Source of the DNA: a phage | Strand: one strand, 5' to 3' | Sequence record: PQ724392.1 | Length of the DNA stretch: 64,000 bases | Part shown: piece by piece, positions 2,370 to 59,925 of the stretch | How the letters are laid out: the number at the start of each line of letters is the position of its first letter | How positions within the stretch are numbered: the stretch's first letter is position 1 | Made by a program: the position numbers and the translations under genes | Notes under the pieces: generated by a model | What the model saw: the letters and a program-made list of their open reading frames with translations, nothing else | Databases searched by the model: none | Told to the model about the DNA's origin: nothing

Positions 2370-3113
2370 TTAACCTCTAATCAGTTTAAAAATTGACGCG
2401 TTCAAAGGCAGACCACGTTTCAGTTTAAGGCGGTCAATGAATGACAACTTATCTAAACGCTCCAGACCTTGAATAATTTTATCATACATATCGTAACGCG
2501 TTTCAGCGTCAGATGATTTCATTTTCAGACGCCAGTCAGGACCACCCATAACCATTTTCAGCCCACGTTGACTAGTTCCGATGGAAGCCATTTGTCCATG
2601 GATACGAGCCTTGACTGCAATCACAGAAGGGGTAGTATCTTTAGCGCCACTTTTATAAAGCTCTTTTAAATGTTTTTGACGCTTCTTGATTCCACGTTCA
2701 GTATCTTTAATATTTTTAACAATTTTGCGAATTTTATAATAGTCAGCAGGAGTTACTTTAAAACTATTGGGCATCTTAGAACCGCCATTAATACGCACCG
2801 CCAAACGAGTCTGTGCACGTTTAAGTTCATCAAGAGATAAATCAGCACGTAAACCGTTGTACTTAGTTTTGACAGGGATAACATTGCCTTCAATATAACC
2901 TATATCATTGTTAAAGCGTTCAAAGGAAACTTTATCTTGAGTTGAATTTTCATCAAAACGTTCACCAGAATACGCACAGAATTCCTGTTTCAAAAGATTG
3001 GCGATATACTTACTAGACAGATTGAAATCCTTGTTACGACGTTTTGCAGACGTTTTGGTATGCTCGCGACGTTTGTAAACTTTTAATTCAAACTCTTCTT
3101 TTGACATATTCAT
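2370..3113 (-). CDS. HNH-family homing endonuclease-like protein
   Basis: 247 aa; CAYSGERF ... FERFNNDIGYIEGNV resembles HNH nuclease core; basic DNA-binding-like C-terminus; inserted between mod-like genes and dda. Confidence 0.5.
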   Translation of the reverse strand: MNMSKEEFELKVYKRREHTKTSAKRRNKDFNLSSKYIANLLKQEFCAYSGERFDENSTQDKVSFERFNNDIGYIEGNVIPVKTKYNGLRADLSLDELKRAQTRLAVRINGGSKMPNSFKVTPADYYKIRKIVKNIKDTERGIKKRQKHLKELYKSGAKDTTPSVIAVKARIHGQMASIGTSQRGLKMVMGGPDWRLKMKSSDAETRYDMYDKIIQGLERLDKLSFIDRLKLKRGLPLNASIFKLIRG

Positions 3114-3248
3114 GATATTTTTCTCATCTTACGGACGATTGAATAACTCAGTACGGAATCATTATATACTATTCATCTTTTATGTACACTACTTTTTCAC
3201 CTTTAACGCTTTTATTTTTACTGTGTATAATGGTTCTAAGGTCTTTGG

Positions 3249-3863
3249 TTAGTTCAAAACAGTTAAATGCCAAACAGTATACAGGTTATTCAATGGGTGT
3301 GTTTCAATCAAGTCTACGCGGAGCGTAGTCCCAGCGGGAAACATAAACTCATCTTCATCATTAACCAGGTGCAAGTTTGACTTCCTGGTTGCTTCTGGAT
3401 ATGCACCATTGAACTCTTCAGGAGGAGCACCGCAAATCATTTTGAAGATTGCTTCCTGATAGTTATACGCATATGGTGCATTGTTTATACAGAAAATGTT
3501 CCTTGTGCCATAGAAACTGTATGATGCAAAATTTCTTGCAACCTGCCAGTCCCTGGAAAAACTCATTACACGATTGAATTCAATTGTTGCGCCAACATAT
3601 CTTAAATCTTCCAGGTATTCCATGGTTTTCTTTGATATACCACGGAACAATGCTGCCGGCGGCGCAGTATTCAGATTGTTGCGGATAATCCTGGACAAGT
3701 CTTCTTGAATCAGGTCGGGTTTATTTTCCATACACTGCCAGAGTACTGATTGCTCATTATCTGTATAAAGAGCATCAATCTCCGCTTGACATTGGTTACG
3801 AAAAGACTCACTAGAAGCGGCAGTGTCAATAATTCCATTCAAAACGTCATCAGTGTACAGCAT
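3249..3863 (-). CDS. ADP-ribosyltransferase, ModA/ModB-like
   Basis: R-S-E pattern (LFRGIS, SFS, EDEF); paralog of next gene; start moved to ATG 3863 because the promoter/leader repeat lies inside the longer ORF-track frame. Confidence 0.6.
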   Translation of the reverse strand: MLYTDDVLNGIIDTAASSESFRNQCQAEIDALYTDNEQSVLWQCMENKPDLIQEDLSRIIRNNLNTAPPAALFRGISKKTMEYLEDLRYVGATIEFNRVMSFSRDWQVARNFASYSFYGTRNIFCINNAPYAYNYQEAIFKMICGAPPEEFNGAYPEATRKSNLHLVNDEDEFMFPAGTTLRVDLIETHPLNNLYTVWHLTVLN

Positions 3864-38888: not shown

Positions 38889-38954
38889 TTTATTCTCCAG
38901 TATTTGGTAACTCAGTATGGGAACATTATACGTCTATCCCCATACCATGTACAC
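38889..38954 (-). promoter_or_regulatory. early promoter cassette (-35 GTGTAC, -10 TATAAT, long conserved leader)
   Basis: GTGTAC-N18-TATAAT then GTTCCCATACTGAGTTACCAAATACTGGAGAATAAA before ATG. Confidence 0.5.
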
Positions 38955-39265: not shown

Positions 39266-39472
39266 TCACTTGCGACGACGTTTTGGTAATGGTTTAGGGA
39301 AGAACATTGCTTTACCTGCAGGGGTTAAAGTCACACGCAAAGCATTACCAATACCAAGGGATGCTTTAACCAGACCTTTGGCTTTTAACTCACCAAATGC
39401 TTGACGTTGTTCAGGGTCACGAGTGTTAACCATCAGACCTTTTTCACCAGCAGCTTTGATTAATTCTAACAT
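39266..39472 (-). CDS. hypothetical small basic protein
   Basis: 68-aa ORF ending KRRRK; preceded by promoter cassette. Confidence 0.4.
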   Translation of the reverse strand: MLELIKAAGEKGLMVNTRDPEQRQAFGELKAKGLVKASLGIGNALRVTLTPAGKAMFFPKPLPKRRRK

Positions 39473-39543
39473 TTTATTCTCCGTTTGTTTATTTGGTAAC
39501 TCAGTATGGAATCATTATGCCTCATGACCATCTGGTTGTACAC
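39473..39543 (-). promoter_or_regulatory. early promoter cassette (-35 GTGTAC, -10 CATAAT, long conserved leader)
   Basis: GTGTAC-N18-CATAAT then GATTCCATACTGAGTTACCAAATAAACAAACGGAGAATAAA before ATG. Confidence 0.5.
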
Positions 39544-39589
39544 ATATACTAAATAAAAATACTTAATAAAACCATAAAGGAGAAAGTTT

Positions 39590-40336
39590 ATGATTTTATC
39601 CGGAAGAACTGTTGATGAACTCAATGAAAAAGTCCAGGCTGCCTTGGCTAATAATTGGTATTTGTTTGGTTCTACTATGGTGTTGCCGAATACTCCTACG
39701 GATAGCAAAGAGCGTTTTTTCCAAACTATGTCCAGCTCGGAAACTCAGATACCGGGCCCGCCTGGTCCAAAAGGAGACCCGGGTGTACCAGGACCAAAAG
39801 GAGACCCAGGCGGGGATGGAAAGTCTTCTTATCAGATATGGCTTGACTTGGGAAATACAGGAACTGTTGATGATTTTTTAACTGATACAGCAGGAAAGAG
39901 GGAAAAATCCGAGGTGTTTTGGAGTGGTATAAACGTTCTATTAACTAATGGTGTGACTTCAAACATAATTAGTATTTTAAAGGGGATTCCGCCGACTGCA
40001 GGGACTCTATCTCCGTTTTTTAGAACCACTGATGATAAGTTGTGGCCATATAACCAAGACAGAAGCCTAATGTTTAAACTCAACCTTATTGGTAATTTTA
40101 CAGGAGCCTCGCAAGCTCGAAGTATAACATTAAATTTCGTTGGAACCAACGGAAACACTTATATACAGAATCGTCCGGAAAATGCTACAGATATTTTGTC
40201 TTTTACAACGTTCTTTAGCATTGATAAAGATGGGGCAATGGCAACCAATGGTACAGCTATAACTGTTATGCCAAATGGCGGCAACTTTACAATAACCTCT
40301 GCATTGTTAGTAGCCGAACAAACAGTGACTTCATAA
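39590..40336 (+). CDS. collagen-like repeat protein with C-terminal globular domain, plus-strand
   Basis: ATG 39590 preceded by AAGGAGAAAG; eight G-X-Y triplets (GPPGPKGDPGVPGPKGDPGGDGKS); followed by hairpin + T-tract; only sizeable gene antisense to its neighbours. Confidence 0.6.
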   Translation: MILSGRTVDELNEKVQAALANNWYLFGSTMVLPNTPTDSKERFFQTMSSSETQIPGPPGPKGDPGVPGPKGDPGGDGKSSYQIWLDLGNTGTVDDFLTDTAGKREKSEVFWSGINVLLTNGVTSNIISILKGIPPTAGTLSPFFRTTDDKLWPYNQDRSLMFKLNLIGNFTGASQARSITLNFVGTNGNTYIQNRPENATDILSFTTFFSIDKDGAMATNGTAITVMPNGGNFTITSALLVAEQTVTS

Positions 40337-40345
40337 ACAAAAAAA

Positions 40346-40365
40346 GGGCCAGATGGCCCTTAGAT
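40346..40365 (+). terminator. stem-loop terminator of the collagen-like gene
   Basis: GGGCC-agat-GGCCC followed by TTAGATT, 10 nt after stop codon. Confidence 0.5.
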
Positions 40366-40602
40366 TGCACTCCAAAAATTATGGAATCTTATAGTATTGA
40401 TAGCCCAGTTAACAAACCTGCGAGTTTGCTTGGGAGTTGGTTTGCATGTGTACTTGATATTGACCCGACGACCAGTTTCCCGACAGACTGCTTCGAGATA
40501 CCAGCGTCGACCTTTATTAGGTCTTCCGTATGATAAGAAGACCTTCATTTCTTCATTAACGATAATAGGAATTGTGGTTGTCAAGATATACCTCTTCAAC
40601 AA
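40360..40602 (-). CDS. small basic protein (start uncertain)
   Basis: 80-aa ORF overlapping the nucleotidyltransferase 3' end; internal Met would remove the overlap. Confidence 0.3.
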   Translation of the reverse strand: MLKRYILTTTIPIIVNEEMKVFLSYGRPNKGRRWYLEAVCRETGRRVNIKYTCKPTPKQTRRFVNWAINTIRFHNFWSAI

Positions 40603-41566
40603 ACTTGTCCCAGAACTTCATGTCCACCTTCGCAGGCATACCGTTCTTAGCAGCCTGGATGGCCAGGACTTCAACTTCATCAACAGTATTTTCCAACAGG
40701 CCTTGAACTACTTTGAAAGGCATATCACCAGCTTTTATTGCTTTAATAATAGAAGCGTTTTTGAGCGGATAAACCAGGTCACCAGTTTGATAGATTTCCT
40801 TCAGCTGATATCCAGCTCGATAAGCATGGCTCAGAGCTTTCCAGTCAATACCTTCATTCGCTTCAGCCTTACGAGCACGTTCACCATATTCGGCATCAAG
40901 TTTATTCAGAGATTGCTTGAGCTCGATTAATGACAAAGTAGTTTGGTATTTACGACCGAGAATAGTATAGAACGTTTGAGGACCTGTTTTCTCATGGTTA
41001 TGAAATATCCATTCACAGAACTCGTTTTCAGGGAGTCTGTGTTTGATATCTTCTACCTTAGTACGTCGTTGCTTAGTAGAACCATCTTCTTGATAATCGA
41101 CCCATTGTTCAGGAATCTGGTTAACAATTTCCAATACACCACGCAGTGCAGCCAATCGAGAACCTTTAACACCATATTTGGAAGCTTGCTTACGGACGTA
41201 CCCCAAATAGGCTTTCATGTTAGTTGTATAGAACCGTGAACGGTTGTCCTGAATAAACTTCCATACATCTGGTAAATCGGATTTGACTACCAGGTCAGCC
41301 GGGGTGTGAATCATATCCAGAGCAACGGTTTCGCCATCGGCCGCCAGTTTAAAGAAATATTTCAGACTATAAAGTTCATGGTCAACATCATCTTTTGTAT
41401 TTTTGGTAGCCGTGTTATTCGTGTTCAGGTTTGTATGATTCATCGCGGTTCCGAGCAGGATATCTCGCGGATGTGGAACAAAGATTTCTTTAAAATCGAC
41501 ATCAGATTCTGGGGTACTTGTTCCATAAAGATGGCTACCGAAGTAGCCTTTCATAACTGTTCTCAT
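40556..41566 (-). CDS. Pol-beta superfamily nucleotidyltransferase-like protein
   Basis: 336 aa; N-terminal GSHLYGTSTPESDVDF fits GS-x9-SD-x-D NTase signature, followed by DDVDH; ATG overlaps stop of upstream membrane ORF. Confidence 0.5.
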   Translation of the reverse strand: MRTVMKGYFGSHLYGTSTPESDVDFKEIFVPHPRDILLGTAMNHTNLNTNNTATKNTKDDVDHELYSLKYFFKLAADGETVALDMIHTPADLVVKSDLPDVWKFIQDNRSRFYTTNMKAYLGYVRKQASKYGVKGSRLAALRGVLEIVNQIPEQWVDYQEDGSTKQRRTKVEDIKHRLPENEFCEWIFHNHEKTGPQTFYTILGRKYQTTLSLIELKQSLNKLDAEYGERARKAEANEGIDWKALSHAYRAGYQLKEIYQTGDLVYPLKNASIIKAIKAGDMPFKVVQGLLENTVDEVEVLAIQAAKNGMPAKVDMKFWDKFVEEVYLDNHNSYYR

Positions 41567-48942: not shown

Positions 48943-49231
48943 ATTTTTTCCAGTCAGAAATCATATGAATCTCTTGGTCATACGTCAAGAGACTACGAGT
49001 TATAATGCCCTTACAAGGCCCTGAGATGAACTCGAGGGTGAAGTAAGGAACCTGTTTCATTAATCGGATACTAGGAGCGTGGCATCTAAAACGAGAGCCC
49101 TTAAAGGGCCCTGACATGAATACATATTCTAATGGATAGAAATAAGCATATTCAAAATTTGTAGTAAGGTCCTCTCTTCGGACCTTACGTGAGAAATAGC
49201 AGAACTCAAAAAGTTCTTCATCAGTCATCAT
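48935..49231 (-). CDS. hypothetical protein
   Basis: 98-aa ORF co-oriented. Confidence 0.35.
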   Translation of the reverse strand: MMTDEELFEFCYFSRKVRREDLTTNFEYAYFYPLEYVFMSGPFKGSRFRCHAPSIRLMKQVPYFTLEFISGPCKGIITRSLLTYDQEIHMISDWKKYV

Positions 49232-49755
49232 TGCATTCCTATCACAAAGAACAGTGGCAGAGGTTTAGAACCTTGGCACATAAATTTATTCATCATTGTC
49301 TGATAAGCTTCATAGAACTTATCCATCGCTGGTAGGCGAATAGGCTCTTCAATAATAATCAATAATCGGGTAACAGACAGTCCACGATATTTGTGAAAAT
49401 GATCTTCATCTAAAAATGAACGAACAGTATCATATACAACAAAACCAGGTCGTTCAACATTAAGATGTGGCTGTGCTTTAGAAACCCGCTTTATTATATC
49501 ACAGATTTCTCGTGAGCGATGCGAAGAACTCGACATAACAATTACATCATTACCCTTAGAAACCCAATCCGCAGCGAACTGCGCAATGGCACTTGTTTTA
49601 CCTGTTTGTCTTCCGCCGTCAAGTCTAAGAGTACCAAACTCTTGCATTCTTGAAGCGGGTTCATACCAGGTGTATTGGTCTGAATCTAAGCGTTCAATGG
49701 CGCGTTCAGCGAAGGCGTGCATTAAGGTTAGATAAATTGGAGTTAAAAATTTCAT
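49228..49755 (-). CDS. small P-loop NTPase
   Basis: 175 aa; Walker A GGRQTGKTS and Walker B-like LLIIIEEP. Confidence 0.45.
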   Translation of the reverse strand: MKFLTPIYLTLMHAFAERAIERLDSDQYTWYEPASRMQEFGTLRLDGGRQTGKTSAIAQFAADWVSKGNDVIVMSSSSHRSREICDIIKRVSKAQPHLNVERPGFVVYDTVRSFLDEDHFHKYRGLSVTRLLIIIEEPIRLPAMDKFYEAYQTMMNKFMCQGSKPLPLFFVIGMQ

Positions 49756-49915
49756 AGTTGCCTCTTAGTTGTGGGGCCGTTCCTTGGCACATAATTCATC
49801 CGTGTATCCGTATGTAAACCCCTTACCGCACTTGGGCTCGACCTTATTACAGGTAGGGAAAGGTCCATCACTCAGAGGACGCGACGTTCATGAGGAGAGG
49901 GCCGGCTTGCCTTTA

Positions 49916-58806: not shown

Positions 58807-58885
58807 TTTATTCTCCAGTGTTTTATTTGGTAACTCAGTATGGAATCATTATGCCTTAAAGCAGGGGGCTTGTATACCCCCTTTT
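58807..58885 (-). promoter_or_regulatory. stem-loop + early promoter cassette (PeSL-like)
   Basis: GGGGGTATACAAGCCCCC hairpin containing -35 GTATAC, N18, CATAAT, leader GATTCCATACTGAGTTACCAAATAAAACACTGGAGAATAAA. Confidence 0.5.
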
Positions 58886-59333: not shown

Positions 59334-59403
59334 TTTATTCTCCAGTGTTTATTTGGTAACTCAGTATGGGATAATTATACACTATCCCACCTGGAAGTAA
59401 AAC
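59334..59403 (-). promoter_or_regulatory. early promoter cassette (-35 GTTTTAC, -10 TATAAT, long conserved leader)
   Basis: GTTTTAC-N17-TATAAT then TATCCCATACTGAGTTACCAAATAAACACTGGAGAATAAA. Confidence 0.5.
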
Positions 59404-59840: not shown

Positions 59841-59925
59841 TTTATTTCTCCAAAGTTTTGTTTGATTCAGTGTGTAACTCAGTATGGAATCATTATGCAT
59901 CCAGTCAATTCGGATGTACACTACT
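59841..59925 (-). promoter_or_regulatory. early promoter cassette (-35 GTGTAC, -10 CATAAT, long conserved leader)
   Basis: GTGTAC-N18-CATAAT then GATTCCATACTGAGTTACACACTGAATCAAACAAAACTTTGGAGAAATAAA. Confidence 0.5.

Follow-up and report, generated by a model that had tools for sequence, protein, structure and literature searches.

A collagen-stalked knob protein with a DUF1737 N-terminus as a candidate virion fibre of T4-like phages

A gene on the plus strand of a T4-like phage, at 39590..40336 of a 64,000-nt stretch of sequence record PQ724392.1 (the window, to which all unprefixed coordinates refer), encodes a protein of 248 aa that is almost certainly built of four modules: a DUF1737 domain, a collagen-like tract, a neck and a C-terminal knob. 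The best explanation of this gene, to which we give an even chance, is that its product is a homotrimeric fibre, dispensable and made late, on the exterior of the virion, with the capsid as the most likely site. The parts of this explanation differ in strength. Association of the protein with the virion is fairly probable, while the capsid as docking site, proposed by analogy with other phages, is tentative and falls short of an even likelihood.

Public records list the gene under 'tail needle knob' or as a 'hypothetical protein'. In the literature on the knob, on DUF1737, on collagen head fibres and on the carrier phages (by phage name: fHe-Yen9-01, GuL6, Carvaje, CfP1, EkoM5VN and vB_EcRAM-01), we found nothing on the four-module architecture, the DUF1737 N-terminus, the variable collagen spacer or the late-promoter context. 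The protein is a new arrangement of known modules. The label 'tail needle knob' is probably misleading because, to our knowledge, the tail of a T4-like phage carries a gp5/gp5.4 spike at its end and not a needle of the P22 type.

The coding sequence

The region is 97–98 % identical to Escherichia phages TH54, TH40, ECML-359, EAWsc9, DK-13, vB_EcoM_RZ (hereafter RZ) and others. RZ is classified in Straboviridae, Tevenvirinae, Gaprivervirus, and the window belongs to this genus of T4-like Straboviridae. The open reading frame (ORF) opens with the first ATG past an in-frame stop and closes with TAA. Its ratio of nonsynonymous to synonymous substitution (dN/dS) was 0.23 in comparison with RZ and 0.19 in comparison with Dhakavirus C6; this is a real coding gene under purifying selection (dN/dS ~0.2).

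A preliminary description of this DNA had called the gene the only sizeable one on the plus strand and had credited it with a strong ribosome-binding site of its own, and both observations hold. A Shine–Dalgarno sequence, AAGGAG, is read at 39577-39582 (plus strand), 7 nt ahead of the ATG, and is kept in RZ, C6, AnYang and PEi20. The gene is the sole plus-strand ORF of at least 130 aa that does not lie over minus-strand ORFs. All others of that size overlap minus-strand ORFs by coordinates, including two without a long minus-strand ORF over them that on inspection sit over shorter ones, and they were dismissed as shadows of minus-strand genes. No signal peptide or transmembrane segment could be read from the protein sequence, and defence-system and NCBIfam searches with the protein gave no match.

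The C-terminal knob

The last module (aa 99-248; 39884..40333, plus strand) is an Sf6-type knob with a predicted TNF-like jelly roll. Pfam Phage_tail_NK (PF16532; cutoff 27 bits) scored 112 bits over aa 99-244 (E=3.2e-32) and aligned along positions 30-175 of its 175, PHROG 1030 (class 'tail', named 'tail needle knob') matched with E=2e-67, and a phmmer search of PDB sequences returned 3RWN (Sf6 gene 9 knob) and 4K6B (HS1 knob) with E ~1e-31. Direct alignment with Sf6 gp9 gave 41 % identity over 143 aa and covered only Sf6 residues 139-282. The same two structures were the best PDB matches of the full-length AF2 model in Foldseek (E ~3e-13, target-normalised TM 0.81), followed by PRD1 P5, the phi812 central-spike knob, ExsFA, C1q-like domains and TNF-like lectins.

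Crystals of the Sf6 and HS1 knobs are homotrimeric TNF-like jelly rolls that resemble PRD1 P5 and adenovirus fibre knobs, and the Sf6 knob binds three L-glutamate molecules through E146, K200, S248 and D250 (PMC3741392). These four contacts align to E108, K163, S210 and D212 of the protein described here, and all are identical. Across the family E108, K163 and S210 are invariant and D212 is nearly so. The knob should likewise be homotrimeric, as suggested by the three chains of 3RWN and 4K6B and by the collagen triple helix, which needs three chains.

The preliminary description had noted a C-terminal part of about 160 aa rich in Thr, Asn and Gly and had likened the protein to a collagen stalk with a C1q/TNF-like head. 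The composition is as described (Thr 24, Asn 15 and Gly 14 in the last 160 aa). The likeness stands at the level of fold, given the TM of 0.81 to TNF-like knobs and a stalk that is conserved, but not as membership of a sequence family: Pfam C1q and TNF gave no match to the protein at E<=1, and structural similarity to C1q/TNF-type proteins is weak (Foldseek E 1e-3 to 1e-2, TM 0.5-0.6, 8-15 % identity). By sequence comparison the domain belongs to the Sf6-knob family and not to the C1q/TNF families.

The collagen-like tract and neck

The collagen-like tract, GPPGPKGDPGVPGPKGDPGGDGKS, occupies aa 56-79 (39755..39826, plus strand). It consists of eight uninterrupted G-X-Y triplets, as had been noted from the sequence before, with 8 Pro among 24 residues and KGD charge pairs. 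A collagen triple helix rises by ~0.29 nm per residue, and eight triplets would therefore form a stalk of ~7 nm if they are triple-helical.

Triplets were counted in full-length homologues that share the N- and C-terminal domains. Their number was 0 in the Klebsiella siphovirus Carvaje, ~1 in RB43, 8 in the gene of the window, 9 in C6, 16 in fHe-Yen9-01 and ~25 in a metagenomic protein (P0009). An accidental run of low complexity was considered for this tract and ruled out, since it lies between conserved flanks in the orthologues and varies in length. Because its length changes in register between conserved domains, the tract is better regarded as a structural spacer.

The tract is followed directly by SSYQIWLDLGNTGTVDDFL, within a neck motif (SSYQIWLDLGNTGTVDDFLTDTA; aa 79-101, 39824..39892, plus strand) with two short helices at aa 80-86 and 93-101 in the AF2 model. 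This motif also stands behind G-X-Y tracts in many unrelated phage fibre proteins (P0012-P0017, P0023 and P0046). It has no Pfam name; the labels on proteins that bear it, such as Mtd_N in P0014 and Rap1_C_Sp in P0013, fall outside the motif or below the cutoff. In P0023 the collagen-plus-neck unit is fused to a BppU_N N-terminal domain. The occurrence of this unit on differing N-terminal domains fits a role of the N-terminal domain in setting the location of the fibre.

In the design known from C1q and BclA, a C-terminal trimeric head nucleates the collagen helix. By analogy, the knob may nucleate the short helix of the present protein. Both the trimeric state and the triple helix are suggested by homology and by collagen chemistry.

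The N-terminal DUF1737 domain

The N-terminal domain (aa 1-54; 39590..39751, plus strand) appears, from profile and model evidence, to be a divergent DUF1737 domain and a putative anchor to the virion or capsid. The Pfam model is matched by all six of the six family members tested, below or near the threshold, with a best E of 2.7e-6. When a profile of the family N-domain was run against 1.8 billion representative proteins, it retrieved small proteins of 50-65 aa, and these (P0064, P0065 and P0067-P0071) are themselves above the Pfam DUF1737 cutoff. An hhalign comparison of the family profile with these proteins plus the N-terminus of phi24B vb_24B_21 (gp84) gave a probability of 98.2 % (E=6e-14). 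A hidden Markov model built of bona fide DUF1737 proteins only had this ORF as its sole match among all ORFs of the window and a 50 kb late region of RZ (E=5e-10), most of these bona fide members having been chosen through their similarity to the present family.

Predicted structure points in the same direction. The AF2 model of aa 1-55 (predicted local distance difference test, pLDDT, 80.6) has a strand at 2-5, a helix at 8-20, strands at 23-32 and a strand at 42-49, and Foldseek against BFVD aligned it to viral proteins named DUF1737 with TM 0.78-0.89 and a root-mean-square deviation of 1.3-2.5 Å. Neither sequence profile search nor Foldseek against PDB gave a meaningful match to a solved structure for this domain. 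In a 2026 preprint, cryo-electron microscopy placed the DUF1737 domain of phi24B gp84 (residues 2-57) on the pore at the centre of capsid hexons, where its one helix and three antiparallel strands anchor a decoration protein with cleaved distal esterase domains (10.64898/2026.04.10.717836). The order of secondary structure elements in our model is the same.

One metagenomic protein of 520 aa (P0058) carries two tandem DUF1737-like domains with 'xIQWR...W..L' repeats and a different C-terminal domain. To judge by this protein, the DUF1737 module would also serve at the N-terminus of proteins with other distal cargo.

Transcription signals

Several orthologues of the gene are preceded by a T4-type late promoter element. 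Four of them, those of Dhakavirus C6 and AnYang, Tegunavirus fHe-Yen9-01 and Kanagawavirus PEi20, carry an exact TATAAATA between −30 and −33; in RB43 the octamer at −30 reads CATAAATA. The leaders of C6/AnYang, fHe-Yen9-01 and PEi20 are otherwise unalignable across the three genera, and an exact TATAAATA occurs only four times in the 128 kb obtained by counting both strands of the window. Its rarity, together with its fixed distance from the gene in three independent contexts, is therefore good evidence of gp55-type late transcription, and the family as a whole is very probably transcribed late by the gp55 system. The plus strand of the window has no exact TATAAATA upstream of the gene; it has an octamer TAAAAATA at 39554..39561 (plus strand), 36 nt upstream of the ATG, that matches in seven of eight positions. 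Late expression in this particular phage is likely on the strength of the orthologues, although its own octamer has one mismatch.

Downstream, a GC-rich hairpin with a 7-bp stem (AAGGGCC-AGAT-GGCCCTT; 40344..40361) begins 8 nt past the stop codon. Its ΔG is −12.9 kcal/mol on the plus strand and −15.5 on the minus strand, and it is flanked by A7 on the left and only TT on the right, which leaves a U-tract on the minus strand only. It therefore reads as a canonical intrinsic terminator for the early transcripts that converge on the gene from the minus strand and, for the plus-strand gene, as a hairpin without a U-run. What had been described as the gene's hairpin terminator is thus correct as to a GC hairpin just 3' of the gene, but the U-tract is that of the other strand. 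A GC-rich hairpin stands a few bases from the stop codon in all orthologues, with a stem sequence that differs by lineage, and those of RB43, PEi20 and fHe-Yen9-01 have A- and T-runs (U-runs) on both sides.

On the left, a promoter scan found a sigma-70-like early promoter (TGTACA-17-CATAAT; 39514..39542, minus strand) for the gene at 39266-39472. It overlaps a cassette of ~50 bp, made of promoter and leader (39473-39522), that is repeated at 58807-58856, 59334-59378, 59874-59921, 38901-38929 and 3144-3165; the copies are 83-95 % identical and stand upstream of minus-strand genes. They look like recombination substrates of the early promoter–stem-loop (PeSL) type found in T4-type hyperplastic regions. 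The earlier statement that the gene is flanked by promoter cassettes applies to its left side, with this cassette, its five other copies and the promoter 39542-39514. Neither the DUF1737 domain, nor the late promoter of the orthologues, nor the strand of the U-tract had been noticed in the preliminary description.

These signals suggest how the gene could be accommodated. Early transcription from nrdC.11 would stop at the hairpin, the sigma-70-like promoter would restart minus-strand early transcription beyond the gene, and the plus-strand gene, which fills the gap, would probably be transcribed late from a T4-type gp55 promoter in the direction opposite to its early neighbours.

Distribution and evolution

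The query was matched by 38 phage records, nine with the whole gene, two, at megablast level, with the knob part only and the rest with flanks only. Full-length orthologues were found in 42 phage records, spread over five genera of Straboviridae and a single siphovirus genus. Most Gaprivervirus records lack the gene, and SP18 of that genus has other DNA in its place; on these grounds the gene would be dispensable.

The segment that differs between the window and SP18 runs from 39519 to 40354 (39519..40354). In SP18 its place is taken by 279 bp with a small unrelated minus-strand gene (gp098) that has a stem-loop and early promoter of its own; homology with SP18 ends at 39518, in the promoter cassette, and resumes at 40355, in the hairpin. 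The hairpin and the cassette are thus the right and left borders of the variable segment. Modular shuffling by PeSLs has been described for the hyperplastic regions of T4-type phages (Arbiol et al. 2010, PMC2839356; Comeau et al. 2014, PMC4122927), and the segment agrees with the definition of a PeSL-bounded module (PMC4122927), in which a stem-loop terminator and a conserved early promoter border a stretch of DNA that is not the same in close relatives.

The gene adjoins an nrdC.11-type nucleotidyltransferase gene in the window, in RZ (Gaprivervirus), in C6 and in AnYang (Dhakavirus), and in Kanagawavirus PEi20 it lies between nrdC.10 and nrdC.11. In Tegunavirus fHe-Yen9-01 it is found on the other side of nrdC.11, near rI-like and tk genes (L010 2501-3319), and the cassette would therefore have moved within the hyperplastic region, with its orientation and signals kept (TATAAATA at −33). 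Pseudotevenvirus RB43 has the gene among minus-strand genes, and in Straboviridae the orthologues are always on the strand opposite to their early-gene neighbours.

The preliminary description had proposed a recently acquired module. This was not borne out: the nrdC.11 neighbourhood is shared across genera, synonymous sites are saturated between genera (proportion of synonymous differences, pS, ~0.75) and the GC content is ordinary (41 % in the gene, 39.7 % in the window). A signal of foreign origin was likewise sought in the GC content and, this being unremarkable, rejected. These comparisons describe the gene as an old accessory gene of the hyperplastic region that has been patchily retained.

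Parts of the gene have a more recent history. In comparison with Dhakavirus C6, the part coding for the anchor and stalk (39600-39899) is 64-69 % identical, whereas identity rises to 93-98 % over the knob and hairpin (39900-40399). A recent exchange would therefore have been confined to the knob-coding part, with a breakpoint at ~39900 where neck and knob join. A conserved knob on a diverged anchor and stalk fits an anchor that is tied to its own virion and a distal ligand that is shared. Within nrdC.11, identity to C6 falls to 60-74 % at 40600-40799 and then returns to ~90 %. The overall pattern of identity to C6 indicates several recent recombination patches between the genera.

Carvaje, a siphovirus, represents the only lineage outside Straboviridae in which the full-length family was found. 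Its gene (L004 6092-6796) shares one base with the end of the large terminase gene before it and is followed by the portal gene, and it encodes a collagen-less version with DUF1737, neck and knob. The related siphoviruses VLCpiS10a and Kpn BU9 share this collagen-less architecture.

Location and function of the fibre

A virion fibre of the proposed kind would assemble from its tip. The TNF-like knob would trimerise like its Sf6 and HS1 homologues and thereby register three chains, and the neck and eight G-X-Y triplets would zip into a triple helix of ~7 nm. The three DUF1737 domains would then dock the fibre on the particle, the capsid surface being the likeliest place. This would leave the knob as the distal, ligand-facing end, probably for weak auxiliary adhesion to a molecule on the host or an environmental surface and not for primary receptor recognition. 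The capsid is the most plausible site because the sole functional datum for DUF1737 is capsid binding, because the collagen-like trimer SPP1 gp12 binds the centres of hexamers and because the Carvaje gene sits in a block of head genes. That the protein belongs to the virion at all is favoured by a knob-only homologue that was detected by mass spectrometry in CsCl-purified Vi01-like virions (PMC10892097).

Several points weigh against a capsid fibre. RZ encodes a Hoc-like protein, and Hoc of T4 occupies the hexon centres (PMC7602432); a site of the phi24B type may therefore be taken. Capsid binding by DUF1737 comes from one preprint on one podovirus with an unrelated capsid geometry, where the domain binds as a hexamer, a mismatch with a trimeric fibre (10.64898/2026.04.10.717836). 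The present protein does not conserve the loop that holds the anchoring Tyr42 of phi24B gp84; its own is 3 residues longer. DUF1737 also occurs as a stand-alone protein of 50-60 aa in bacteria, phages and giant viruses, and binding to HK97-fold capsids may therefore not be general to it. The literature named above gave no expression or virion proteomics data for any full-length member of the family.

Other points against it concern the modules and the promoter. The Pfam DUF1737 model (PF08410) scored 17.6 bits with the isolated domain (E=0.0034) and 13.8 bits with the whole protein, below its cutoff of 24. Pfam Collagen (PF01391) reached 17.6 bits and not its cutoff of 27.2, as is to be expected because the tract is shorter than the 60-residue model; longer orthologues such as P0009 have a precomputed PF01391 match. 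Octamers of the TAAAAATA type, with one mismatch, are at background in the AT-rich window (15 found, 9.3 expected). The full-length AF2 model is a monomer of moderate confidence (pLDDT 69, and <50 in aa 186-221). The ligand-binding function of the knob is uncertain and must count as unproven, because an Sf6-type knob, that of HS1, had no detectable role in host specificity when placed on a hybrid P22 needle and because mutation of the L-glutamate site of Sf6 had no phenotype (PMC3741392).

The fibre might instead be an accessory of the tail, baseplate or neck and collar, with DUF1737 docked on a protein of the tail or collar and with a knob that contacts the envelope during adsorption or DNA delivery, as has been proposed for the tip of the Sf6 needle. 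The distal tip of a P22/Sf6-type tail needle is the only setting in which the knob has been characterised, PHROG 1030 is classed as 'tail' under the database name already mentioned, the collagen-plus-neck unit is found mostly in tail-fibre proteins, one of them with BppU_N, and Hoc may already fill the hexon centres. However, the protein has neither the N-terminal plug nor the coiled-coil shaft of gp26/gp9, T4-like tails offer no P22-type needle to be tipped, the N-domain family has been seen in action only on a capsid and the Carvaje gene lies between terminase and portal genes and not in a tail module. We consider a tail fibre unlikely, though of the alternatives it deserves the most attention. 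A soluble trimeric lectin-like factor is more doubtful still. Such a protein would be released at lysis outside the virion, where it might mask receptors on debris and neighbouring cells or bind L-glutamate, and its DUF1737 domain would have a role unrelated to capsids. It would agree with the strict conservation of the L-glutamate-contacting residues, with the position of a dispensable gene among non-structural genes and with the prevalence of DUF1737 as a small stand-alone protein, also in giant viruses and bacteria, for which capsid binding is perhaps not general. It agrees poorly with the lack of a readable signal peptide, with a late-promoter architecture like that of structural genes, with the collagen stalk and distal knob, a typical design of surface-displayed fibres, and with the co-purification of a knob-only homologue with virions.

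That the ORF is a chance product or a decaying pseudogene with an accidental G-X-Y run has next to no likelihood. The sub-threshold Pfam Collagen score and the mismatch in the late-promoter octamer of this lineage would agree with it, but it is refuted by purifying selection (dN/dS ~0.2) and conservation, with orthologues in 42 records, a very strong knob match, a strong Shine–Dalgarno sequence and a conserved 3' hairpin.

If the capsid-fibre explanation is taken to its furthest extent, T4-like phages would have a third outer-capsid decoration beside Hoc and Soc, a DUF1737-anchored trimeric head fibre with an evolvable stalk of 0 to ~25 triplets and a TNF-like knob. We regard this as possible but more doubtful than not. 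DUF1737 would then be a portable capsid-docking module of podoviruses, siphoviruses and large myoviruses with interchangeable cargo such as esterases and knobs. Docking on the head as in phi24B would mean that some T4-like phages carry an extra, dispensable capsid fibre, with a bearing on the adherence of phages to mucus and surfaces, on immunogenicity and on phage-display engineering, and that DUF1737 is a general module for capsid display. It would also turn the family into a set of natural variants that differ in the length of the collagen stalk while anchor and head stay constant, in which the stabilisation of short bacterial collagen helices could be tested. If the protein is a tail accessory or a soluble protein instead, the gene is an ordinary mosaic phage fibre gene.

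Genomic neighbourhood

The gene forms part of the nrdC–mobD early region. Its left neighbour is a small gene of the nrdC.10 region (39266-39472, minus strand) and its right neighbour the nrdC.11-type nucleotidyltransferase gene (40556-41566, minus strand). Between the latter and the hairpin, the minus strand holds an unannotated ORF for a very basic protein of 62 aa (MKVFLSYGRPNKGRRWYLEAVCRETGRR...; 40360-40548), which starts 8 nt past the nrdC.11 stop codon and ends within the terminator hairpin. RZ has no annotated gene at this place. Small ORFs also adjoin the hairpins of C6 (46 aa) and PEi20 (69 aa), and inspection of the translations revealed no evident similarity to the 62-aa ORF.

In the late region of RZ (L007), the closest annotated relative, and outside the window, two homing endonuclease genes are annotated, one between the head-tail adaptor and head closure genes (2618-3253) and one between two ribonucleotide reductase subunit genes (49059-49787). 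Both are unrelated to the fibre gene.

Comparison with known systems

The closest relatives of the C-terminal 146 aa are the knobs of Sf6 gp9 and HS1 (PF16532; 3RWN and 4K6B), with 41 % identity and a predicted fold at TM 0.81. The knob stands at the extreme C-terminus, as it does in all homologues (PMC3741392). Unlike in those proteins, DUF1737, collagen and neck replace the gp26-type tail-plug domain and the trimeric coiled-coil shaft, and the carrier is a contractile-tailed T4-like virus without a P22-type needle. As judged from its sequence, the protein as a whole is not a tail needle protein of the P22/Sf6 type, and 'tail needle knob' names a domain and not a role. Leavitt et al. (2013) had listed 'outside' knob homologues without a known function in RB43 and other T4-like phages.

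With phi24B gp84, a NanS-p-type esterase, the protein shares an N-terminal domain of ~55 aa of the same family and fold, placed at the extreme N-terminus with the distal domains outward; late expression, or a place in a late region, would be a further common feature of the two genes. The cargo differs, with esterase and lectin in gp84 and a collagen stalk and knob here, and so does the loop of the anchoring Tyr42, as set out above. In addition, gp84 is hexameric and proteolytically trimmed, whereas the present protein should be a trimer, and the T=9 head of a podovirus contrasts with a T4-like prolate head that bears Hoc.

The trimer formed by SPP1 gp12 has a collagen-like core, is not essential and attaches to the centres of capsid hexamers (PMC7602432; PMC6316719). 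Both proteins combine non-essentiality with a short central collagen-like tract and a trimeric design, and the binding of gp12 to the outside of expanded capsids means that a collagen trimer can occupy a quasi-six-fold site. However, gp12 has 64 aa and neither DUF1737 nor a distal globular head, so that the resemblance is functional and architectural only.

C1q, C1q-like proteins and Bacillus BclA/ExsFA have the same order of parts, with a C-terminal trimeric jelly-roll head behind a collagen triple helix, and C1ql, ExsFA and TNF-like lectins were among the structural matches (E 1e-3 to 1e-2, TM 0.5-0.6). In contrast to the Sf6-type knobs, they share no sequence family with the protein (8-15 % identity), and its stalk is far shorter than theirs. 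This likeness of fold could reflect very distant ancestry or convergence.

As a genetic element, the gene resembles the PeSL-flanked accessory genes of T4-type phages. The segment has a stem-loop terminator at one border and a repeated early promoter of sigma-70-like type at the other, and a congeneric phage carries an unrelated small gene in its stead, the breakpoints being in the border elements. The typical cargo of such elements is a small early-strand ORFan, whereas this one carries a larger gene of recognisably structural type that runs the other way and whose orthologues have a late promoter.

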